A stretch of 61,772 bases of DNA, filler included. It is 7 parts of 7 records of this genome, joined end to end, with 100 filler letters (N's around TTAATTAATTAA, not from the genome) between each part and the next. Parts side by side here need not be neighbours in the genome. Positions count along the whole stretch, not along the records: positions 1 to 9,295 come from SRR31156797_24462; 6 more parts are not named here. One strand, given 5' to 3'. Below are positions 1 through 53,593 of this stretch, piece by piece (position 1 is the first letter of the stretch; every line of letters begins with the position of its first letter). The notes beneath the pieces were generated by a model. The model made no database searches. It was given only the letters and a program-made list of their open reading frames with translations, and had not been told where the DNA came from. Both the position numbers and the translations under genes were made by a program.

Positions 1-20
1 AGACGCACGGCCGTGCGTCT
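1..20. repeat. REP-like perfect palindrome AGACGCACGGCCGTGCGTCT at the contig edge
   Basis: Perfect 20-bp palindrome. It resembles the core of GTAG-type REP elements; the left flank is cut off by the contig start. Confidence 0.65.
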
Positions 21-73
21 CAACGAGAATGCGGCCGCGCATTTCCAAATGCTAAAATAAAAACAACAATATC

Positions 74-313
74 ATGAAAACATTCATCAAAACAATCGGC
101 ACATTATTAACCATTACACTATTAACCATTAACATCTCCCTCGCCCAAACGCCTCCCCCTCCCAACGGTGGCGGCAATCCAAGCCAGGGCGGCAACACTC
201 CCGTGGGCGGCGGCGCGCCCATCGGCAGCGGCCTGCTGGTGCTCATCGCAATGGGAGCGGCTTATGGTGGCAAGAAAGTTTATGATTTCCGGAAAAGGAA
301 ACTGGCGGAATAG
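74..313 (+). CDS. Small secreted Pro/Gly-rich protein with PID-CTERM-like sorting signal
   Basis: 79 aa: signal peptide, TPPPPNGGG linker, then APIGSG, hydrophobic helix, GAAYGGKK and basic tail. Confidence 0.8.
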   Translation: MKTFIKTIGTLLTITLLTINISLAQTPPPPNGGGNPSQGGNTPVGGGAPIGSGLLVLIAMGAAYGGKKVYDFRKRKLAE

Positions 314-491
314 ATCAACCTAAAAGTCCTCCGGACAAACAACGCCTTAGCCAAATAAGAATAATTTCCAGTGTGATATGACATGCGGAAATACCCCAGG
401 TCCGGATAAGGTATTAGCCAGATGCTATTTGCCAGATACTGTTATGACTTCAGGCCGGTATAGCGGGATATCGTTGTCTGTGGTTTGCAAA

Positions 492-1670
492 TCAGTAATT
501 TACATGCATTTTCAGCTCGCTCAACTTTGAATAGTAAGCATTTTCCAATTCAAGCAAAGTTGAAGTTGTTTCCCATATGTACTGTGAATCCACAAAATAT
601 TCCACGTATGAGATCTGGCCTGAATCCAACAAACTAAACAGGTTTTCCAAAACCTGTTCATCCTCCAGGATATCTTTCATCTGCATGTATCTCGAATAAA
701 GGCTTTTGGTTTCGTTATATAACAGTTTGATCTTCATTGTGATTTCACTTTCTGTCTGCTGATAATTGGCTTCGGACCAATCATGCTGTAATTCCGCATA
801 TTTCACACCATTGGCATTTTGCCACAAAGGAATTGTAACTCCGGCACGAAAACCCTGCAACTCCTGATCAAAAATGGATTCATATTTGTAACCCGCTTTA
901 AATGTTGGCAGGCTTTTCATTTTTTGGAACCTGATCTGCTTTTCTGATTCGCTAATACTGAGCGTTGCCAATTGAAGTTCGGGATTCTGATCATACAGTT
1001 TTTCAACCAACACTTCAATCGGAGGCAGTTCCGAATACTTAGGATAAGCAACATCAAATTCGCTGATGGATTTTCCACCGTTGAACTGCAACAGGCGTTC
1101 CCAATTTATTTCCATATCCGCATGGATTTTATTCCGATCATTTTCCAGGTTCATAGCGTATATGCGGGCTTTGTCGTACACAGGTTTAGAAATTTGACCA
1201 TTTTCAAATCCCTCATTCATCAATGAAAGCAACTTTTCTGACATATGTATACGTTCATTCAGCTGGGCTTCCTGTTTGGTTAACCAGACCAGCCGAAAAT
1301 ATACTGTGCGAACCCTGTGCAACAATGCGCTTTTTTCTTTGCTGGCTACAACCTCTTTTTGCTCAAACCGCAATTGCTGTATATCAGATTTTGAGGTGTA
1401 ATACCCCGGAAGCCTGAAAGGTTGCATGATTTCAAACTCCTGCTGGTCGCCGGGAGTTTTGGAATTGCCAAAAAGATAATAGTAATCCACTTCGGGATTT
1501 TCAGGATAAATCCCTGTTTTGGCTTTTATTTCTTCAGCAACCATCCACTTTTGCAGTGCAACCAGGCCGGGGTTGTTTCGCTCCACACTGAGCAGAAGGC
1601 TGTCGAGGCCCTGCCCGGCAGTATTTAGCGCTATCGTTATGAATACGATGATATACATTGTTTTTTTCAT
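492..1670 (-). CDS. TolC/CzcC-family outer membrane efflux protein
   Basis: 392 aa, signal peptide, OEP-type repeats (ERNNP, DQNP, GVTIPLW). Last gene of the RND operon, 1 nt from the permease. Confidence 0.9.
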   Translation of the reverse strand: MKKTMYIIVFITIALNTAGQGLDSLLLSVERNNPGLVALQKWMVAEEIKAKTGIYPENPEVDYYYLFGNSKTPGDQQEFEIMQPFRLPGYYTSKSDIQQLRFEQKEVVASKEKSALLHRVRTVYFRLVWLTKQEAQLNERIHMSEKLLSLMNEGFENGQISKPVYDKARIYAMNLENDRNKIHADMEINWERLLQFNGGKSISEFDVAYPKYSELPPIEVLVEKLYDQNPELQLATLSISESEKQIRFQKMKSLPTFKAGYKYESIFDQELQGFRAGVTIPLWQNANGVKYAELQHDWSEANYQQTESEITMKIKLLYNETKSLYSRYMQMKDILEDEQVLENLFSLLDSGQISYVEYFVDSQYIWETTSTLLELENAYYSKLSELKMHVNY

Positions 1671-1671
1671 T

Positions 1672-4600
1672 TTACTTCTCCTTCCTTTTTACAAGAAAAT
1701 ATACAGCCGGAATTACAAATACATTGAGCAGGGTTGACGTGAAGAGTCCCCCAAGGATCACCACCGCCATAGGGCTCTGGATTTCGTTGCCGGGTTTATC
1801 GCCCGCAATCGCAAGCGGTATCAGCGCCAAAGCTGCTGTGAGGGCGGTCATCAGAATGGGATTCAGCCTGTCGAGCGAACCGTGAACGATCGCCCTGTGC
1901 AATGGTTCGCCTTCCTCCTGCAACGCATTGTAACGCGACACCAACAGGATTCCATTCCGTGTGGCGATGCCGAAAAGTGTAATGAAACCGATGATTGCCG
2001 GAATGCTTAACATACCTGAGGTTGCCCAAATGCTGAAAACCCCGCCGATAAGTGCCAGTGGGAGGTTGAGCAGGATAACCGCCGATACGGCCAGGTTGCG
2101 GAACTCCATGTACAGCAAAAGGAAAATTATCAGTATGGCCAGCAGCGAAGTGTAAAACAGCAGCCCGGCCGCTTTTTCTTCGCTCTCGAACTGCCCGCCG
2201 TACTGGATATAGTAGTTCTCGGGCAACCTGATATTTTCGTCGATGGTTTTTTGCACATCAGTTACCACGCTGCGCAGGTCGCGCCCGGATACATTGGCGG
2301 ACACCACCACCTTTCGCTGAACGTTTTCCCTGCTGATGGTGTTGGGTCCGGATGCGGAAACCACATCGGCAACTTCGGAAAGCGCAATTTTTCTTCCGTC
2401 ATGCGTATCGAGCAGGGTATTCTCTACGGCCGCAATGGATGAACGGTAGCGGTCGTTGTAGCGAAGGACAAGGTCAAAACTCTTATTCCCCTCATAAACT
2501 TCCGACACTTCTTCGCCTGCGAATGCCACATCGATAAATTCGGCGAACTCGTTTACCGGGATGCCGTATTGCTTGAGCATTTCCCTTTTTGGTTTGATTT
2601 GCAACTGTGGTATCTCCACCTGTTGTTCCACATTTACATCCACCAGGCCTTCTATGCCTGAAATATCCGATTTTATTTGTGTGGCTATGGAAAACATGTT
2701 GCCAAGGTCGGTTCCAAAAACCTTGATAGCAATGTTTGCCCTGGTGCCTGACAGCATATGGTCGATGCGGTGCGAAAGCGGCTGGCCGATGGTAATGTTT
2801 ATTCCCCTGATGGTTCCAAGGCGGTTGCGCAGTTCTTCCAGAAAATCTTCTTTCGAACGGCCATCCAGCATGAACGGCACATCCACTTCAGATGAAAACA
2901 CACCCTGGGCGTGTTCGTCCAGTTCGGCGCGGCCCGTGCGCCTGACAATGGTACTGATCTCCTCCATTTCGAGCATCTCTTTTTCGAGCATCAGGTTGAT
3001 CCTGTTGCTTTCCTCAAGAGAAGTGCCCGGCAAATTCACCGTGCTGAGTGTAAGCATTCCCTCGTTAAACTCCGGGAGAAAACTACGCCCAAGGCTGAAG
3101 AGGACAAACATGGAAGCGATAAACAGCAGGCCTGCTGCTGCGATCAACGTCTTTTTATAGGTGAGGGCATACTCCAGGACGATGCCGTATCTCTTGTTCA
3201 GCCACCGCACCCAACGTGTTCCGGTTTGATGCGCCGACAATTGTTTTTTGCCGGTGAGCAGATAGCTGCATAAAACCGGTGTAAGGGTGATGGCCACTAT
3301 CAACGAGGCAAAAAGCGAAACAATGAACGAAATTCCAAGCGGCCTGAGCATGCGTCCTTCCATTCCCGAAAGGAAAAATAACGGAATAAAAGCCACGATG
3401 ATGATCAATGTTGCATTGAGGATGGAAGCCCTGATTTCTTTGGAGGCATTGTAGATCACTTTCAGTTTTGCCTCCTGCCTGCCGGGCGGTTTTTGGGCAT
3501 TTTCCCTCAGTCGCTTCAATACATTGTCCACATCAATAATGGCATCGTCAACCAGCACTCCAATGGCAATGGCCATACCACCCAGTGACATTGTGTTGAT
3601 GGTAAGGCCGAGCACTTTAAGCGTGATAACCGATACCAGCAGGGACAATGGTATGGCGATTAGTGAAATGGCGGTAGTCCTTACATTCATCAAAAAAATA
3701 AAAAGTATGATGCTGACAAATAACCCGCCTTCGAGCAGTGCCCATGTAACGTTATCGATGGCCCGCTGAATAAAATCTGCCTGCCTGAATATATCCGTCC
3801 TGATGTTCAGATGGTCCGGCAGTGTTTTTTTTAGATCCGCCATGGCCGCATCAATGCGTTCGGTAAGTTCCAGTGTGTTGGTGTTGGGTTGCTTTAAAAC
3901 GGTCATCACTACGGCCGGTTGGCTGTTGAGATATCCGGCCCCGATCCTGGGTGCTGCTCCCGTTTTTACGGTTGCCACATCGTTGATGGCAATGGGTTGT
4001 CCGTTTTTTATTTTTACGACCGAGTTGCCGATATCCGTCAGGTTATTGGTACGGATCACGCCGCGTATCACAAACTCATTGCCAAAATCGTTCACGAAAC
4101 TACCGGTTGCATTCTGGTTGAGTTGTTCAGAGGCTTTGACAAGTTCCGTGAAGCTAACCCCGTGGTAATCCATTTTTTCAGGATCGGCTTCAATGATGTA
4201 TTGTTTGTATTCGCCGCCGATAACCACCACCTGCGATACCCCGCCAATCGACAGCAGTCGGTTGCGTACCTGCCAGTCGGAAATGGTACGGAGTTCCATC
4301 GGGCCCAGCGAATCCGAGGTAATGGTGATGAGCATTATTTCGCCAATAATCGACGACTGCGGAGCGAGCGTGGGATTTCCCGCATTTTTGGGTAAACGCT
4401 CTGCCACTGTGGCCAGTTTTTCGCTTACGATCTGTCGTGCCTTGAATATGTCGGTGTTCCATTCGAAATCCACCCAAACAATGGAGATTCCGGTTGCGGA
4501 GGATGAACGCACCCTGCGGACGTTGGTGGCCCCGTTAACGGCTGTTTCGATGGGAAACGTTACCAGTCGCTCCACCTCCTCAGTTGCCATTCCGTGGGCT

Positions 4601-4755
4601 TCGGTCAACACCACCACCGACGGGGCTGTAAGATCTGGAAACACATCCACATCCATCCTTGTGGCCACATAGCTTCCACCGATCAGCAGGATGAAAGCCA
4701 GGAACATGATCAGGTGCCTGTTCCTTAATGAATAATCTATGATTCTGTTCAGCAT
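1672..4755 (-). CDS. CusA/CzcA-family heavy-metal efflux RND permease
   Basis: 1027 aa with DVFPDL, EEVERLVTFPIE, TM4 GVLVDDAII, FLPEFNEG and RLNPILMTALT motifs. Confidence 0.95.
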   Translation of the reverse strand: MLNRIIDYSLRNRHLIMFLAFILLIGGSYVATRMDVDVFPDLTAPSVVVLTEAHGMATEEVERLVTFPIETAVNGATNVRRVRSSSATGISIVWVDFEWNTDIFKARQIVSEKLATVAERLPKNAGNPTLAPQSSIIGEIMLITITSDSLGPMELRTISDWQVRNRLLSIGGVSQVVVIGGEYKQYIIEADPEKMDYHGVSFTELVKASEQLNQNATGSFVNDFGNEFVIRGVIRTNNLTDIGNSVVKIKNGQPIAINDVATVKTGAAPRIGAGYLNSQPAVVMTVLKQPNTNTLELTERIDAAMADLKKTLPDHLNIRTDIFRQADFIQRAIDNVTWALLEGGLFVSIILFIFLMNVRTTAISLIAIPLSLLVSVITLKVLGLTINTMSLGGMAIAIGVLVDDAIIDVDNVLKRLRENAQKPPGRQEAKLKVIYNASKEIRASILNATLIIIVAFIPLFFLSGMEGRMLRPLGISFIVSLFASLIVAITLTPVLCSYLLTGKKQLSAHQTGTRWVRWLNKRYGIVLEYALTYKKTLIAAAGLLFIASMFVLFSLGRSFLPEFNEGMLTLSTVNLPGTSLEESNRINLMLEKEMLEMEEISTIVRRTGRAELDEHAQGVFSSEVDVPFMLDGRSKEDFLEELRNRLGTIRGINITIGQPLSHRIDHMLSGTRANIAIKVFGTDLGNMFSIATQIKSDISGIEGLVDVNVEQQVEIPQLQIKPKREMLKQYGIPVNEFAEFIDVAFAGEEVSEVYEGNKSFDLVLRYNDRYRSSIAAVENTLLDTHDGRKIALSEVADVVSASGPNTISRENVQRKVVVSANVSGRDLRSVVTDVQKTIDENIRLPENYYIQYGGQFESEEKAAGLLFYTSLLAILIIFLLLYMEFRNLAVSAVILLNLPLALIGGVFSIWATSGMLSIPAIIGFITLFGIATRNGILLVSRYNALQEEGEPLHRAIVHGSLDRLNPILMTALTAALALIPLAIAGDKPGNEIQSPMAVVILGGLFTSTLLNVFVIPAVYFLVKRKEK

Positions 4756-4766
4756 AACTTCCTGGT

Positions 4767-6284
4767 TTAGTGGGTATGACCATGTAAGGGCAGTTCGCCG
4801 GCAAGTGCCGCCAGTTTGATCTGGTACGCACCCCGGGTAACAATTCGTTCACCCGGCGAGAGGCCGGAAACGACTTCTGCCAGTTGTCCGTCACTGCCTC
4901 CGGGTTCCACCTGTCGTTTTACGAATGATTCGCCACCGGTTTGAACAAATACGAAATATTGCCCCTGCTCTTCGATGATGGCCGATAACGGCACAACCAG
5001 TGCCTGGTCTTTTTTCCCGGTTTTTAGAAAAGTTTCCAGGAACATTCCCGGCATCAGTTTGCCGTTGTTTTCAATGCTGAAAGCCACGGGGATGCGTGTG
5101 TGATGTTCATTTACAAAGGCGTTTTTTGAAATGATTTGCCCGCCGGTTTCCGAAAGTGCGATGATTTCATCCTTGTCGATCAGGAAGTTTGCATCGAAAA
5201 TGCCGTTTACTTTTTGGAAGTCAGACGGGTTTACATATGCCTCAATAAGCAGTTGATTCGTTTCGGCCACCGTGATCAGGGGAGACCCGCTTTCTGCAAA
5301 CTGTCCGTTTGAAACCATAATCCTGGTTACAATTCCGTCCATCGGGGCTATGATTTTTAATCCGTTTTGTGACACCAGTCCCGTCAATTGATAGTATCGC
5401 AGTGAATCCTGTTGATAGCGGGTTTTTGTTTCCAGAAATTCCTTTTGTGAAACCAGCTGTTTTTCCGCCAAAGGTTTTAAACGTAGGTAATCCGACCGGC
5501 TGCGCTCGAACGCGATTTTGCGCTCGTTCAGTTTCAGGGTGGTATTGTTTTCGATACCGGATCCCGTAACCAGTGCCAGTAAATCACCCTGCTCTACCGA
5601 TTCTCCGGGCACCGCCAGTATCTGAACTGTACCCGCCGTTTGTGCATTGAGGGTGATTTCCGCCCGTGGCTTGTGTTTTACTTTTGCCGAAGTGTGGATC
5701 ACCGAGTAAAATGGTTGAGGCTGAATTTCAGCGGTATGAAATTCGGTTTTCCAGGCCTGCTCTTTTAAATAGGTAACAGCGTCACTTTGTTCCTCCTGCA
5801 TGGGAGCATGCGCTGCCTCATCTGCGGTGGCGTAAACCTCAACCGACGGGATTTTGAACCTTACATCACCGCTACTGCTTTCCAGCTGAAAAAACATTTG
5901 ATAGGTACCCGCCTCCTTTGGTTGCAGTGCCGGACGAAAAATGCCCGGGGAGGAGGGGGCGTCAACCTTATGCCGCAAGCCGCGGCCATCTTTCACAATG
6001 CTTACGGTTAATTGCCCTTCAGTTACAGGTTTATAATCTTCCATTCTTGTGAAATGCGCTGCAAATTCACTGGTTTGGCCTACCACCAGTGCGGGAAATT
6101 CCACGAATAATTCATACCCGCCCGTGAAAAGGGTATAACTCATTGTGCCTTCGCCGTGCTCATGGTCATCATGGTCACTGCTGCCGCCAATGGTATCATG
6201 CGTGTGTCCGCCCGTATTGCTTTTATTACAGGCCCCCATCGTGATCACCAGTATGAAGGCCAGCATGTATTTTATTTTATTCAT
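4767..6284 (-). CDS. RND periplasmic adaptor (CzcB/CusB-like) lipoprotein with His-rich N-terminus
   Basis: Lipobox MGAC, His/Asp patch, APMDGIV, GMF, VPLSAI, GLSPGERIV, C-terminal HGHTH. Confidence 0.9.
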   Translation of the reverse strand: MNKIKYMLAFILVITMGACNKSNTGGHTHDTIGGSSDHDDHEHGEGTMSYTLFTGGYELFVEFPALVVGQTSEFAAHFTRMEDYKPVTEGQLTVSIVKDGRGLRHKVDAPSSPGIFRPALQPKEAGTYQMFFQLESSSGDVRFKIPSVEVYATADEAAHAPMQEEQSDAVTYLKEQAWKTEFHTAEIQPQPFYSVIHTSAKVKHKPRAEITLNAQTAGTVQILAVPGESVEQGDLLALVTGSGIENNTTLKLNERKIAFERSRSDYLRLKPLAEKQLVSQKEFLETKTRYQQDSLRYYQLTGLVSQNGLKIIAPMDGIVTRIMVSNGQFAESGSPLITVAETNQLLIEAYVNPSDFQKVNGIFDANFLIDKDEIIALSETGGQIISKNAFVNEHHTRIPVAFSIENNGKLMPGMFLETFLKTGKKDQALVVPLSAIIEEQGQYFVFVQTGGESFVKRQVEPGGSDGQLAEVVSGLSPGERIVTRGAYQIKLAALAGELPLHGHTH

Positions 6285-6304
6285 TTTGTCATTTTTAATG
6301 TAAA

Positions 6305-6347
6305 GCCCGGAGCAGAAATATGTTAAATATATCCCTGCTATCCGGGC
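6305..6347 (-). other. Intercistronic stem-loop
   Basis: GCCCGGAGCAG...CTGCTATCCGGGC inverted repeat between the His-rich lipoprotein and adaptor genes. Confidence 0.45.
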
Positions 6348-6360
6348 CTGGAAAAATTAA

Positions 6361-6630
6361 TTAATGCTGATGTCCATCGTCGTGGTCATGGTCATGTTGG
6401 TCATGATCGTGGTGGTCATCGGTACCGGAATGTTTCGTGGTATCCTCCACCATAAATTCTTCCTGTCCGGTGTGTTCGTGATCGTGTTCATGGTCGTCGT
6501 GTGCATGATCGTGTGTTTCAGTACCGTGATCATGTCCGTGGTCGTCGCTTTGGCTGGTATTTGAACCGCATGAAGCAGCCATCAAAACCATGTACAACGA
6601 AATTACCATTACATAAATGAATCGTTTCAT
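6361..6630 (-). CDS. His/Asp-rich lipoprotein, putative metal-binding protein
   Basis: 89 aa, lipobox MAASC, about 19 His in HxH repeats, directly upstream of the adaptor gene. Confidence 0.8.
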   Translation of the reverse strand: MKRFIYVMVISLYMVLMAASCGSNTSQSDDHGHDHGTETHDHAHDDHEHDHEHTGQEEFMVEDTTKHSGTDDHHDHDQHDHDHDDGHQH

Positions 6631-6775
6631 AGTAAGTAAGTTTATTGTTCAACAATATTTGAAATTGATGCCGGCAACCGCACAACCTGTGTACAGCTTT
6701 GCCGGGATATACCCATCAGAATAAGGCCGGAGAGGGGTTTAATCTACCGGTAGTAAAAATAAAAATGTTTGAATT

Positions 6776-7240
6776 TCAGGAAATAGCAGGCGGGCCCCGC
6801 AGGCTTACAGCCCCGTGTTCAAATTTGGATTTTATCGGGAAGGGATTATCCGCAAAGTGCGTTTCTACTGCTTCGGGTGGTTTTGCCGAAATGAATAGAT
6901 GCGGAGTGAGGTAAACCACTGCGGATAAAACCTCACTGACCGAAGTATTTTGCTTTAAGCTAAATCTTGCATAATCGAAATTGCCGTGAGTAGAAAAGTG
7001 TTGGTGATAAGGAAAATTATGCTGGTGGTTATCGTCGGCAGTATCCTGCTCATTGTCGTGGTGGCTGTCCGGTTCATGGTGATGACGCCCGGAGGTGTGA
7101 TGGTGATGATCGTGATTTTGGGTGTGTAATTCTGCGTATTCATCTACAATAGCATCGTGATGGTGGTGCGGGATCAGGTCATGCCCGAGCACCATCAAAA
7201 ATGATAAAAGAGTTATTATGGCGTAGATTCGCAATTTCAC
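6776..7240 (-). CDS. His-rich membrane-targeted leader protein ending in LRGPPAIS (candidate arrest peptide)
   Basis: N-terminal hydrophobic segment, PHHHH, 24 His, C-terminal RGPP. Start placed at GTG 7240 because a Bacteroidota -7 box lies just upstream; the ORF track starts at 7270. Confidence 0.75.
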   Translation of the reverse strand: MKLRIYAIITLLSFLMVLGHDLIPHHHHDAIVDEYAELHTQNHDHHHHTSGRHHHEPDSHHDNEQDTADDNHQHNFPYHQHFSTHGNFDYARFSLKQNTSVSEVLSAVVYLTPHLFISAKPPEAVETHFADNPFPIKSKFEHGAVSLRGPPAIS

Positions 7241-7245
7241 AGGTG

Positions 7246-7253
7246 CAAAAATA
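7246..7253 (-). promoter_or_regulatory. Bacteroidota sigma-A -7 element (TAnnTTTG) for the efflux operon
   Basis: TATTTTTG on the minus strand 5 nt before the GTG, implying a leaderless or near-leaderless mRNA. Confidence 0.6.
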
Positions 7254-7486
7254 GGTTTTTCTATTAACAAACATGACTAAGATATAGTTCAGCAAACAAT
7301 CCCCCGGAGGCATTTATCCTACGGCGCTTCATATGAAACCGACCGGCTGATTCATGAGCTATCTTACTTTCGGCAGAAACCCGGGCGGAGGATTTAGCGG
7401 GTTTTAAGAATCCTATTTCCACAACCCATTCGCCAAATTGCTGCCATTTTACAATCTTTCCGCTTCTTGCTATTTTTTTAAATAAT

Positions 7487-8340
7487 ATGTCAGCTAAAAA
7501 ACCGGGACTTCTTTTATTATTTTTTCATGTGCCAAATCTGCTGCTCGCCCAGGTCAAGCGCATCGGGATGCCGTTTACGAGGAACTATGATACTACTTCC
7601 ATTCAGGCTGGTTCACAAACCTGGATGATTGATATCAGCCCGGATGGGCTGGCATATTTTGCCAACAGCGACGGTGTGGTAGAGTTCAGCGGACTCAACT
7701 GGTGAAAATATCCCATGCCCAACTTTACGGTGGTAAGGAGTGTGAAAGTATCCCCTGACGGCAAAATATTTGCAGGGGTATTCAATCAGTTCGGCAATTA
7801 TTATCCAGATGAGCGTGGCAATATGGTTTTTAAACCGATGCATGAGTTACTTCCCGAAAATGGGCGGAGCTTCGAGGATATCTGGCGGATCTACGATATG
7901 CCCGTCGTCATTGTATTACAGACTTTCCAGCAATTGATGATATACAATAATGGAGCGATAAAAACCATTGAACCTCCCGGTACCTTTCATTTTTCGTTTT
8001 TGGTTAAAGGCGAGCTTTACATCAATAATCCCGAAGAAGGGCTCTACAGGCTGGCAGGCGAGCGCCTTGTGAAAGTGCCCGGCATGGGTTTGCTGAAAGG
8101 TAAACTTTTATGGTCTATCCTCCCGAAAGGAGATAACATACTGGTGGCCACCGCCAGTGAAGGCATTTACGAATTCGACGGGGTAAAACTTAAGCCCTGA
8201 TAAAAACCTGCTGCAAAGTTTTTACAGGAAAACCAGGTGTATTGCGGCCGGCAGTTCTACGAAACCACTTACATTTTCGGCACCCTCCAGGATGGGTTGC
8301 TGATATGTGACACATTAGGGAAAATAATGCAGCATATAGA
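7487..8340 (+). pseudogene. Disrupted N-terminal part of a beta-propeller (two-component regulator propeller type) sensor gene
   Basis: ORFs at 7487, 7715 and 8237 share one frame, broken by TGA 7703-7705 and TGA-TAA 8198-8203. Typical propeller motifs: QTWMI, YFANSDG, FGTLQDGL. Confidence 0.75.
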
Positions 8341-8917
8341 CCTCGTCCCTTCCTACGATGCCGCAAAATTTAAAGGAAACCCCAGTCTTGCACTCTACAC
8401 CAAACTGGTGGATGACAACGGCAAGGACTTTGCCGTGCAGGCACTCCCCGACCATAACATCGGGGATTACATTATTCCCATTGGTGTGGATGTAGCCGAA
8501 AGCGGCGTATTTGAAATCTCAGCAACACAGGAAAAGTTCGAAAATTACAGCCTCATTCTCCAAGACAGGCAGGAAAATACTTTTATTGACTTGCGATGGG
8601 AAACTTATTTCGCCGCCATCAGCGAAAGCGGAACCGGAAGATTCTTCCTTCATTTTAAAGATGCTACAACCATTGGTGAAATTACCCCTGAAACAAAGAT
8701 CAATTTCAGGGTTCTGGATAGGAAAACCATAATTGAAAATCCCGATCGGGAAAAGGGAACTATCAGTTTAGTGAATGTTTCGGGGCAGATAATTAATAGC
8801 ATAGATTTAAATGGAAATTCTACACAGGAGTTTAAAAAACATACGGTGAGCGGGATTTATATTATCTCGATTCAAACAGATATAGCTCATGTGAGCAGGA
8901 AAGTTTTTATAAAATAA
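8341..8917 (+). pseudogene. C-terminal fragment of a T9SS type-A sorting domain protein, fused in frame to the propeller remnant
   Basis: YDAAKFKGNPSLALYTKLV...LQD...DL...RFFLHF, then a CTD (NVSGQ, SGIYII, KVFIK). Junction position is approximate. Confidence 0.7.
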
Positions 8918-8940
8918 ACTAAGAATCAGAACGCGAATAA

Positions 8941-9033
8941 CACAGATTTTACAGATAAAGCACAGATCAAAAAACTGACAAACCTGACAGGCCTTTGCCG
9001 AAGGCATCGCTATGCGAGATGATCTGTCAGGTT
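8941..9033. repeat. Three ACAGAT direct repeats followed by a REP-like inverted repeat AACCTGACAG...CTGTCAGGTT
   Basis: ACAGAT at 8942, 8951 and 8962; perfect 10-bp inverted repeat 8981-8990 / 9024-9033. Confidence 0.6.
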
Positions 9034-9048
9034 AAAAAAACTATAGAC

Positions 9049-9276
9049 ATGAAAACATTCATTAAACTATTAACGATAACTTTAATAACACTAAATTCAA
9101 TCGCCCTATACGCCGGCGCACCTCCTCCTCCACCCCCACCAGGGCATGGCAGCAGCGGAAACGTCGCCGGCGGCGGCGCACCCATTGCCGGCGGTATTGG
9201 AATCCTGCTTGCGCTGGGCGCAGCTTATGGCGGGAAGAAGGTGTATAACATGCAAAAAAGGAAATTTGCAGAATAG
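9049..9276 (+). CDS. Small secreted poly-Pro protein with PID-CTERM-like sorting signal (paralog of 74-313)
   Basis: 75 aa from ATG 9049 (MKTFIK), APPPPPPP, APIAGG, hydrophobic helix, GAAYGGKKVY...RKFAE. Confidence 0.8.
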   Translation: MKTFIKLLTITLITLNSIALYAGAPPPPPPPGHGSSGNVAGGGAPIAGGIGILLALGAAYGGKKVYNMQKRKFAE

Positions 9277-9295
9277 GTACTCAGCCTTAGTTCTT

Positions 9296-9395
9296 NNNNN
9301 NNNNNNNNNNNNNNNNNNNNNNNNNNNNNNNNNNNNNNNTTAATTAATTAANNNNNNNNNNNNNNNNNNNNNNNNNNNNNNNNNNNNNNNNNNNN
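9296..9395. other. Artificial contig spacer
   Basis: 100-nt N run containing TTAATTAATTAA. Confidence 0.98.
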
Positions 9396-9560
9396 TCTCC
9401 AAAACTTTTTATGTCGCTTCGCGAAGGGTATCGTATGCAAAGAGACTTCTTTAATATTAAACACTTCGCCGAAGGCGACACGGGATCCTTAAGGCCCTCG
9501 GCCTTAAGCCGCCAAAGGCAAAATCCCCCGACAATCGCCGCCAAAGGCGGCATCAAATCC
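9396..9560. repeat. Palindromic interspersed repeat cluster (Desulfovibrionaceae-style)
   Basis: Several short hairpins: TCGCCGAAGGCGA, CCTTAAGGCC...GGCCTTAAG, GCCGCCAAAGGCGGC. TTAAGCCGCCAAAGGCA is mirrored at 11419-11435. Confidence 0.55.
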
Positions 9561-11412: not shown

Positions 11413-11418
11413 AAAAAA

Positions 11419-11475
11419 TGCCTCCGGCGGCTTAAGAACCCTTTAAAAAGGGTGCTTAAGAATCTCCTAAACTTT
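11419..11475. repeat. Palindromic repeat TGCCTCCGGCGGCTTAAGAACCCTTTAAAAAGGGTGCTTAAG
   Basis: Internal inverted repeat. Its end supplies GGAGG 8 nt upstream of the ETF-QO start codon. Confidence 0.55.
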
Positions 11476-11615
11476 GTGTATAAAACGCCGCTGGAAAAAT
11501 TGTTAAAATCATTTCATTCTACTGCGGCGTTTTGAGTCATTGCTGTTACAACAGGACTATTACTTGAATTCAAATTTCCTTGAAACCGATTAAGTGTATT
11601 CAATAGGCTTCAAAG

Positions 11616-18858: not shown

Positions 18859-18958
18859 NNNNNNNNNNNNNNNNNNNNNNNNNNNNNNNNNNNNNNNNNN
18901 NNTTAATTAATTAANNNNNNNNNNNNNNNNNNNNNNNNNNNNNNNNNNNNNNNNNNNN
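18859..18958. other. Artificial contig spacer
   Basis: 100-nt N run containing TTAATTAATTAA. Confidence 0.98.
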
Positions 18959-28865: not shown

Positions 28866-28965
28866 NNNNNNNNNNNNNNNNNNNNNNNNNNNNNNNNNNN
28901 NNNNNNNNNTTAATTAATTAANNNNNNNNNNNNNNNNNNNNNNNNNNNNNNNNNNNNNNNNNNNN
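28866..28965. other. Artificial contig spacer
   Basis: 100-nt N run containing TTAATTAATTAA. Confidence 0.98.
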
Positions 28966-39914: not shown

Positions 39915-40014
39915 NNNNNNNNNNNNNNNNNNNNNNNNNNNNNNNNNNNNNNNNNNNNTTAATTAATTAANNNNNNNNNNNNNNNNNNNNNNNNNNNNNN
40001 NNNNNNNNNNNNNN
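39915..40014. other. Artificial contig spacer
   Basis: 100-nt N run containing TTAATTAATTAA. Confidence 0.98.
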
Positions 40015-47621: not shown

Positions 47622-47721
47622 NNNNNNNNNNNNNNNNNNNNNNNNNNNNNNNNNNNNNNNNNNNNTTAATTAATTAANNNNNNNNNNNNNNNNNNNNNNN
47701 NNNNNNNNNNNNNNNNNNNNN
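47622..47721. other. Artificial contig spacer
   Basis: 100-nt N run containing TTAATTAATTAA. Confidence 0.98.
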
Positions 47722-53493: not shown

Positions 53494-53593
53494 NNNNNNN
53501 NNNNNNNNNNNNNNNNNNNNNNNNNNNNNNNNNNNNNTTAATTAATTAANNNNNNNNNNNNNNNNNNNNNNNNNNNNNNNNNNNNNNNNNNNN
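53494..53593. other. Artificial contig spacer
   Basis: 100-nt N run containing TTAATTAATTAA. Confidence 0.98.

Follow-up and report, generated by a model that had tools for sequence, protein, structure and literature searches.

ORF1, a small histidine-rich protein with a C-terminal RGPP motif at the head of a heavy-metal efflux operon, as a candidate co-translational metal sensor

Metal sensing by a nascent peptide is a published principle, represented by CruR (Bp2923) of Bordetella pertussis (PMC9426467), CutF of Rhodobacter capsulatus (PMC9973294; bioRxiv 10.1101/2025.02.05.636593), and surveys of 2023 and 2025. CruR, a DUF2946 protein, acts in cis, and its target, a TonB-dependent importer, is switched off by copper through Rho. 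CutF is an exported nascent sensor in which metal binding in the periplasm prolongs a C-terminal proline stall and turns on a detoxification gene. In the present study, we describe the open reading frame (ORF) ORF1 in a 61,772-nt stretch of DNA (hereafter, the window), which consists of seven contigs joined by N44-TTAATTAATTAA-N44 linkers. ORF1 (positions 6776–7240, on the minus strand, like all features below unless another strand is given) heads a five-gene operon for heavy-metal efflux of the resistance–nodulation–division (RND) type on the contig at positions 1–9295. By analogy with CruR and CutF, we consider it on balance probable that ORF1 acts in cis as a co-translational metal sensor like CruR and CutF, a proposal carried by its anatomy, conservation, and synteny and by a fixed spacing between its ligands and its C-terminal motif.

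ORF1 shares with CruR the position of a small first gene of a metal operon, an N-terminal export signal, a fixed distance between the metal motif and the C-terminal motif (RAPP in CruR), a long intergenic spacer, and a poorly structured protein. CruR differs in being a proteobacterial regulator of an importer, in its CXXC motif and use of copper, and in its spacing between the metal motif and the C-terminal motif, which is 45 residues in CruR versus 66–70 (about 69) in the ORF1 family. Cis action, which is established for CruR, is a proposal for ORF1. ORF1 did not match DUF2946 (PF11162, threshold 23.7 bits), 3 of 89 family members matched it at E values of at least 0.34, and no DUF2946 gene was found in the 41 genomes searched. 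Furthermore, ORF1 has neither a CXXC nor a CxxxC copper motif, as it contains no cysteine, and its conserved ligands are histidines. The proposed mode of action resembles that of CutF, but CutF has a CxxxC motif, a PPP motif dependent on elongation factor P, and a stem–loop hiding the Shine–Dalgarno sequence of cutO, whereas ORF1 has histidines only, RGPP, no Shine–Dalgarno sequence, and no start-masking pairing that we could find. SecM, ApdA, and ApdP are exported proteins that likewise carry an R-[AG]-P-P/G core close to the C-terminus, preceded by a conserved segment for the tunnel and followed by few codons to the stop (three to four between the arrest site and the stop in SecM), whereas they monitor protein export, control sec genes, and have no metal motifs. 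CzcI of Cupriavidus metallidurans is also encoded by a small gene, upstream of czcCBA, and has been suggested to be a metal-sensing regulator; it is reported to lack a C-terminal proline motif (PMC9973294), and the NCBIfam CzcI model matched 1 of 89 ORF1-family members (E 0.016).

ORF1 encodes 154 amino acids, including 24 histidines and no cysteine, from a GTG start to a TGA stop (6776–6778), and the first-pass annotation of this locus was correct in giving it a transmembrane segment, 24 histidines, and LRGPP three codons before the stop. Residues 2–22, led by K2 and R4, form a predicted signal or signal-anchor helix (7175–7237), to which the confidence of the AlphaFold2 model is limited (block predicted local distance difference test, pLDDT, of 94–95, compared with 55–77 for the remainder; predicted template modelling score, pTM, 0.23). 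In this model, ORF1 beyond the helix does not look folded, as reported for CruR (PMC9426467). At the protein level, the loci share this N-terminal helix even where gene callers picked a later ATG. Conservation delimits two His motifs: H-x4-H-H-H-H (H20 and H25–H28; 7157–7183) at the outer end of the helix, and F-P-x-H-x-H (F76–H81; 6998–7015), the last ligand cluster before a linker. The C-terminal block PF-I-S-F-PGA--LRGPP-I- (residues 133–154; 6779–6844), with its information peak at residues 141–154, would by analogy sit in the exit tunnel at arrest; it contains the predicted arrest site R-G-P-P (residues 148–151; 6788–6799), followed by A-I-S and TGA. Library scans gave no Pfam or NCBIfam match to ORF1, and no relative was found among solved structures. 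ORF1 has the features by which RAPP/RGPP-type peptides are recognized, namely, R-[AG]-P-P near the C-terminus of a protein of fewer than 300 amino acids, a predicted membrane or secretory helix, and a downstream gene on the same strand (ORF2, 145 nt downstream).

An exhaustive phmmer search of 1.84 billion representatives returned 91 relatives of ORF1 at E ≤ 1e-3, and a profile search of a 5.8-billion-protein collection added 19 more, giving 111 proteins in all. R[AG]PP lies 2–7 residues from the C-terminus in 105 of the 111 and exactly three residues from the end in 79; the six exceptions comprise one RSPP, two RGSP, and three proteins with other endings, which look truncated from their sequences. 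Among the first 92 proteins, RGPP occurs in 46 and RAPP in 40, leucine directly precedes the arginine in 82 of 86, and R[AG]PP is found nowhere else in the sequence. H20, H25, H27, H81, R148, P150, and P151 are invariant in the 36 full-length members; across 89 members, H27, R148, and P151 remain invariant, and H25, H79, H81, L147, and P150 are conserved at 90% or more. The information content peaks at residues 21–30 (IPHHHH), 71–80 (H-x-F-P-x-H-x-H), and 141–154 (PGA--LR[AG]PP-I-), and the middle is poorly conserved. More distant relatives include one with an RPPP tail. In mutants of ApdA and ApdP, the arginine is irreplaceable, glycine is equal to or better than alanine, and serine or proline is partly permissive (PMC12992588); judged from the sequences, the natural variation at the ORF1 motif matches the variation tolerated for arrest in these peptides.

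The distance between ligands and motif is also conserved. The first histidine of the second motif lies 66–70 residues before the arginine in 82 of 98 scored proteins and 68–69 residues before it in 68; in the same proteins, the distance between the two His motifs varied, mostly from 29 to 59 residues. In 108 proteins, the density of histidine plus cysteine was at most 5% in each five-residue bin from 1 to 60 residues before the arginine, rising to 10% at 61–65 and 39% at 66–70 residues. The same ligand-poor stretch is present in 28 distant, Cys-containing relatives, in which the density rises from about 66–70 residues. Approximately 65 residues would be the length needed to span the exit tunnel and the translocon, so both His clusters would emerge just at the periplasmic face upon arrest.

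The gene order places ORF1 before a metal pump. ORF2 (6361–6630) is called as an 89-residue His/Asp-rich lipoprotein with the signal ...MAASCG. It is followed by a membrane-fusion (adaptor) protein with a His-rich N-terminus (4767–6284; TIGR01730, 131 bits, cut-off 94.9), which also matches HlyD_D23 and HlyD_3, a heavy-metal RND permease of the CusA/CzcA family (1672–4755; TIGR00914, 825 bits, cut-off 701), and an outer-membrane factor (OMF) (492–1670; Pfam OEP, 6e-22). The closest solved relatives of the permease are ZneA (1e-149) and CusA (3e-143), with multidrug pumps at 1e-79 or weaker. The operon therefore contains the CusA/CzcA-type permease, adaptor, and OMF of a heavy-metal efflux RND operon, and the matches to TIGR00914, TIGR01730, and OEP bear out the earlier assignment of ORF1 to the head of such an operon.

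A scan of one genome per species yielded 11 related loci, and a metagenome scan yielded six more, two of them identical, giving 17. All 11 genome loci are of Bacteroidales type (Salinivirgaceae, Lentimicrobiaceae, Geofilum, Carboxylicivirga, Draconibacterium, Sunxiuqinia, and Tangfeifania). A small homologous His lipoprotein is encoded directly after ORF1 in all 17 loci. Among the genome loci, the adaptor gene is present in nine, the RND gene in eight, and an intact OMF gene in six, the DNA otherwise ending, apart from one locus with broken genes; of the metagenome loci, four carry genes for the adaptor and the RND pump, a transposase-like ORF precedes the adaptor gene in one, and the DNA of another stops past the lipoprotein gene. 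The transposase-like ORF (387 amino acids; L015:4997–6160) lies between the lipoprotein and adaptor genes of an otherwise syntenic operon. The first-pass annotation had predicted that a C-terminal R[AG]PP and the position upstream of czcB/czcA-like genes would be kept while the middle diverged, and this is the pattern observed, in 105 of 111 tails and in the related loci wherever their DNA extends to the pump genes. It had also pointed out that no regulator was visible on the contig, which carries little weight by itself because that contig (1–9295) is only 9.3 kb long; the observation does extend to the relatives, since no conserved regulator gene adjoins ORF1 in the 10 related loci with 1–7 kb of upstream DNA, where the upstream neighbours vary. 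The ORF1 family profile, which recovers three of three known carriers, matched 107 of 401 genomes of the order of the Geofilum genome, at ortholog strength in two.

The family appears to extend into DUF6769 (PF20558). Window ORF1 itself did not match this profile at E ≤ 1 (threshold 27 bits), and 22 of 89 family members matched it weakly, with a best E value of 1.2e-4, below 27 bits; the top two in the 17-member subset scored 21–23 bits. Two family members align to the profile end to end (1–130 of 130), and the atlas neighbours of the ORF1 family include a DUF6769 cluster. As a control, the DUF6769 model gave a match above threshold in the genome of Bacteroides thetaiotaomicron. Among the first 30 non-ortholog loci, in which the ORFs were picked by their tail motif and two exceptions were checked by hand, the tail was R[AG]PP in 27, RGSP in one, and RPPP in one and was cut by the contig end in one. 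Of 28 non-ortholog proteins, 16 scored above the DUF6769 threshold, six matched weakly, and six did not match, and the gene after them encoded an HlyD-type adaptor in 20, an OMF in two, a TonB-dependent receptor in one, and a small unassigned ORF in five. DUF6769 proteins have in common with ORF1 the helix, [IVL]PHHHH, a ligand-rich region, a linker, and LR[AG]PP plus 2–4 residues, with an RND adaptor gene next in 20 of 28, whereas its members are Cys-rich and ORF1 has no cysteine and a lipoprotein gene between it and the adaptor gene. On the basis of the shared architecture, the weak and full-length matches within the family, and the distant relatives that pass the threshold, ORF1 is best placed by sequence as a Cys-free, sub-threshold, divergent branch of the DUF6769 superfamily.

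Two genomes hold both the His-only and the Cys/His form, each before a different pump, which fits ligand-specific sensors. In these genomes, of Geofilum and Carboxylicivirga (G402 and G403; loci L022 and L023), the second, Cys-containing DUF6769 paralogue has 139 and 141 amino acids, respectively, ends in ...GLRAPPVC, and lies 147 nt upstream of an adaptor gene with a long N-terminal HEGHNH/HEGHDH repeat. Other small ORFs with proline motifs were noticed beside ORF1 homologues. At L007:6116–6496 (minus), the first gene of a divergent operon for an RND protein (1267 amino acids) and an OMF, adjoining the ORF1 operon, is a 126-residue ORF that contains a helix, KHYCSG, several CC motifs, and, close to its C-terminus, NAPPPPG; we take this ORF to resemble the NCBI 'HYC_CC_PP family', and by its sequence it may be a further proline-motif leader before a pump. 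At L012:3442–3747 (minus), divergent from the ORF1 homologue, a DUF6660 protein (Pfam 4e-10) combines a helix with a Cys-rich region and terminates in FWRPPKF-stop; with DUF6660, a third small family from Bacteroidota shows an Arg-Pro-Pro tail.

The Bacteroidota −7 box TATTTTTG (TAnnTTTG) lies at 7253–7246 and is followed, after 5 nt, by the GTG start at 7240–7238, exactly where the first-pass annotation had placed it. A TAnnTT[TC]G box ending exactly 5 nt before the start codon occurs in 12 of 18 loci, including that of the window, and the start is GTG in 10 of these 12. In Flavobacterium johnsoniae, this box has its G at position −5, leaving 4–5 nt to the start site (PMC6847099). Taken with this distance, the position of the box implies a predicted ORF1 mRNA that is leaderless or has a 1-nt leader. 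Leaders this short are uncommon in the phylum; in B. thetaiotaomicron, 5′ untranslated regions of less than 10 nt make up only 3.7% (PMC7366714).

The spacer between ORF1 and ORF2 (6631–6775, 145 nt) contains two inverted repeats predicted to fold, both of which had been recorded in the first-pass annotation: hairpin A (CCGG-U-AGA ... UCUCCGG; 6727–6750), just before which a T-rich tract was noted by eye (6755–6765), and hairpin B (CCGGCAA ... UUGCCGG, enclosing an inner stem; 6671–6705). Both are present at these positions, and they differ in conservation. The spacers fall into length classes of 63–76 nt (10 loci), 136–146 nt (the window and six metagenome loci, two of them identical), and 213 nt (one locus), and a T-run followed by a hairpin recurs, by eye, in spacers of both the short and the long class. 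In the short class, the counterpart of hairpin A is 98% paired over 10 loci, with four of six pairs changed on both sides, and its covariation score was reached by 3 of 500 shuffles, a figure that comes from only 10 related sequences; the long-spacer alignment also has a hairpin predicted at the position of hairpin A. Spacers of the short class lack hairpin B, and its counterpart in the long class agrees only roughly in position. As a guess, the conserved hairpin could be a polymerase pause site or an RNA-processing or RNA-stabilizing element. Two further structures were considered and rejected. A hairpin over the ORF1 stop codon had 66% of cells paired and one double-changed pair, and the single match resembling an intrinsic terminator lay inside the LRGPP codons rather than in the spacer, the count of such matches equalling the shuffle expectation.

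We envisage the following sequence of events at the ORF1 locus. A sigma-ABfr promoter would give a leaderless or nearly leaderless GUG mRNA for ORF1, and the N-terminal helix would target the nascent chain to the Sec translocon, leaving its C-terminal part outside. The ribosome would then arrest at R148-G-P-P151, with Pro150 (codon 6791–6793) in the P-site and Pro151 (codon 6788–6790) in the A-site, by analogy with the arrest position of ApdA, ApdP, and CruR at RAPP-type motifs (PMC12992588). The analogy gives a strong prior for arrest at the ORF1 motif, since all seven tested S. lividans proteins with C-terminal RAPP/RGPP arrest, as does CruR (PMC12992588), and RAPP-like peptides that Bacteroidales and Flavobacteriales encode ahead of sec genes cause B. 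subtilis ribosomes to stall in vitro (PMC10987492). In the arrested state, the ligand-free linker of about 65 residues would occupy the exit tunnel and translocon, with H20/H25–28 and H79/H81 just at the periplasmic face, where a divalent metal (zinc, cobalt, nickel, or cadmium being the likeliest class) bound by the histidines would alter the pulling force on the chain and hence the duration of arrest. The arrested lead ribosome would thereby set the fate of the lipoprotein–adaptor–RND–OMF message. In the direction we prefer, after CutF, metal would lengthen the arrest, and the pump genes would be made only at high periplasmic metal. As for the route, a parked ribosome may keep the transcript covered or coupled, shielding it from Rho, as in CruR, or from decay.

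Several points weigh against this proposal. Arrest at RAPP motifs is known on non-Bacteroidota ribosomes only, a protein of 154 amino acids with 24 histidines would also suit an ordinary metal-binding protein, and the conservation of the residues after PP (x-I-small) may mean that the finished protein has a function. In the spacer, the fold is marginal compared with shuffles (z = −1.82, 9 of 200 shuffles as good), as is that of a 201-nt stretch (z = −1.25), no U-tract follows hairpin A or B, and the hairpins lie at least 17 nt upstream of the next start AUG without overlapping it. Predicted pairing with the start region of ORF2 was no stronger for the last 15 nt of ORF1 than for other segments of ORF1 (mean rank fraction 0.45 over 17 loci; the locus in the window ranked 48 of 51). 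Start-site masking, the route of SecM and CutF, was rejected on this result, which leaves start-site unmasking without support. Unmasking is also unsupported because Bacteroidota lack Shine–Dalgarno sites (PMC6847099). Arrest would thus have to act by a route other than unmasking of a ribosome-binding site, and the step from arrest to the pump cannot be that of SecM or CutF. The idea in the first-pass annotation of a His-based analogue of CruR is partly supported: its predictions on conservation and synteny were borne out, and stalling, its tuning by metal, and any part played by the two hairpins in read-through stay at the level of proposals.

ORF1 could instead be an accessory pump protein, a membrane-anchored or periplasmic His-rich binder (a chaperone, a buffer, or a CzcI-like protein) with LR[AG]PP-x-I-x as an interaction or sorting motif. 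We regard this as unlikely. In its favour are the 24 histidines and the conserved His motifs, the constant co-encoding of ORF1 with the pump, and the protein-level conservation past PP. Metal-binding accessories are common in this operon, as shown by ORF2 and the His-rich N-terminus of the adaptor, and CzcI, encoded upstream of czcCBA, is counted among CutF-like proteins yet is without a proline motif (PMC9973294). An accessory protein would, by contrast, be hard to reconcile with the absence of a predicted fold past the helix and of a solved relative, or with conservation limited to short motifs and a linker of fixed length and variable sequence. R[AG]PP is, moreover, strongly avoided in proteomes, and the seven S. 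lividans proteins tested with it all arrest (PMC12992588), and a leaderless GUG start suggests low output. An accessory role and a role as an arrest leader are compatible with each other.

The proposal that ORF1 is an arrest-based metal sensor also admits the opposite logic, that of CruR, in which metal would compact the chain and relieve a repressive arrest, caused for example by cleavage or decay of the stalled message, so that the pump is turned on. Copper has been proposed to free CruR from arrest through co-translational folding (PMC9426467), and by the inferred geometry the linker of about 65 residues would put a metal-induced fold just outside the translocon, where it could pull. In CruR, release leads to Rho termination and hence to the OFF state, opposite in sign to what an efflux pump needs; nothing found at the ORF1 locus marks the arrested state as repressive, and CutF, with a detoxifying enzyme as its target, relies on stalling that metal enhances (bioRxiv 10.1101/2025.02.05.636593; PMC9973294). 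This version therefore seems improbable to us. Least likely by our estimate is an arrest leader without a metal-sensing role, which monitors Sec or insertase capacity or tethers the polycistronic mRNA at the membrane for envelope proteins. This reading agrees with most characterized RAPP-type peptides monitoring Sec or YidC, with all four downstream products being envelope proteins, and with the immediate coupling given by a leaderless mRNA, but it would require neither invariant histidines at a fixed distance nor His/Cys swapping among paralogues before different metal pumps, and the association is specifically with metal-efflux genes.

Regarding ORF1 as a nascent-chain metal sensor is less novel than the first-pass annotation assumed, since surveys of CutF-like and RAPP/RGPP proteins already include Bacteroidota proteins before RND efflux genes. 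The survey of Ozturk et al. (2023) lists 5,334 CutF-like proteins, 40% of them from Bacteroidota after normalizing, and their neighbours include OEP, ACR_tran, and HlyD_D23 genes; its two His-only clusters neighbour HupE/UreJ genes and not RND pumps (PMC9973294). The filter of that survey admits proteins of at most 150 amino acids with PP within 15 residues of the C-terminus, a Sec signal peptide, and a same-strand neighbour within 1000 nt. ORF1 agrees with it in its PP and its neighbour and would drop out because its 154 amino acids exceed the limit, while some relatives have 150 or fewer. The source data of the RAPP/RGPP survey contain DUF6769 proteins upstream of RND adaptor genes and an enrichment of RAPP over AAPP among upstream ORFs before such genes (620 versus 148; PMC12992588 supplement). 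According to its main text, in which efflux is not mentioned, Bacteroidota lack upstream ORFs related to copper (PMC12992588), and six tail motifs of the ORF1 family gave unrelated matches only in the part of its supplement that was searched. The literature search returned no description of the His-only family and no function for DUF6769, although the supplements of PMC9973294 and PMC12992588 may list the family. What is new here is the ligand chemistry, the ruler of about 69 residues, the GUG start of a message predicted to be leaderless, the lipoprotein gene interposed before the adaptor gene, and the lack of a start-masking structure in a phylum without Shine–Dalgarno sites.

The contig that bears ORF1 stands apart from its neighbour in the window, in which the linkers occupy the N runs at 9296–9395, 18859–18958, 28866–28965, 39915–40014, 47622–47721, and 53494–53593. 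No DNA of G001, a complete genome of 3.7 Mb, matches contig 1 (1–9295), whereas contig 2 (9396–18858) matches G001 at 98% over its full length. When the phylum around G001 was searched, the family profile matched 0 of 401 genomes and DUF6769 gave one weak match in 401; both searches were rejected as uninformative because G001, lacking a match to contig 1, is not its kin. Based on the match to G001 of contig 2 but not of contig 1, together with the 0 of 401 genomes here and 107 of 401 in the order of Geofilum, contig 1 looks like a foreign (mis-binned) contig or an acquired island. Two paralogous small ORFs in the same orientation flank the operon contig (74–313 and 8995–9276, both on the plus strand; 79 and 93 amino acids), each with a signal peptide, a poly-Pro/Gly-rich stretch, a hydrophobic helix, and a basic tail (...GAAYGGKKVY..RKRK.AE), and neither matched Pfam. 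In the divergent upstream region (7487–8917, plus strand), three successive ORFs in different frames (72, 161, and 226 amino acids) look, from their sequences, like a single gene split by frameshifts or assembly errors; the 226-residue ORF has a weak C-terminal match to a type IX secretion system sorting domain (Por_Secre_tail, 22 bits, below the cut-off). In contig 2, the first approximately 155 nt (9396–9550) and a stretch of about 65 nt some 2,020 nt inside (about 11415–11480) have more than 25 copies in G001 at 74–96% identity and are, by sequence, short dispersed repeats of the G001 lineage.

How Bacteroidota control metal efflux is poorly understood, and regulators of the textbook kinds (two-component systems and the MerR and ArsR types) do not adjoin these operons. 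If the proposed role of ORF1 is correct, a whole bacterial order would sense periplasmic metal through the nascent chain of a leader peptide, and through its His-only branch the principle of CruR and CutF, known for copper and cysteine, would reach divalent cations and histidine as well. DUF6769 would gain a function, and its fixed-length 'ruler' would be testable. The ORF1 family also offers a direct way to learn how an arrested ribosome governs downstream genes without Shine–Dalgarno sites. More tentatively still, and as a possibility that we rate below the role of ORF1 itself, the DUF6769 superfamily may be the main switch for metal-efflux pumps in Bacteroidales, consisting of ligand-swapped (His-only or Cys/His) sensors that are parked at the translocon, share a ruler of about 65 residues and leaderless GUG messages, and act by Rho exclusion or transcript protection, the His-only branch being a zinc, cobalt, nickel, or cadmium sensor without a characterized counterpart.

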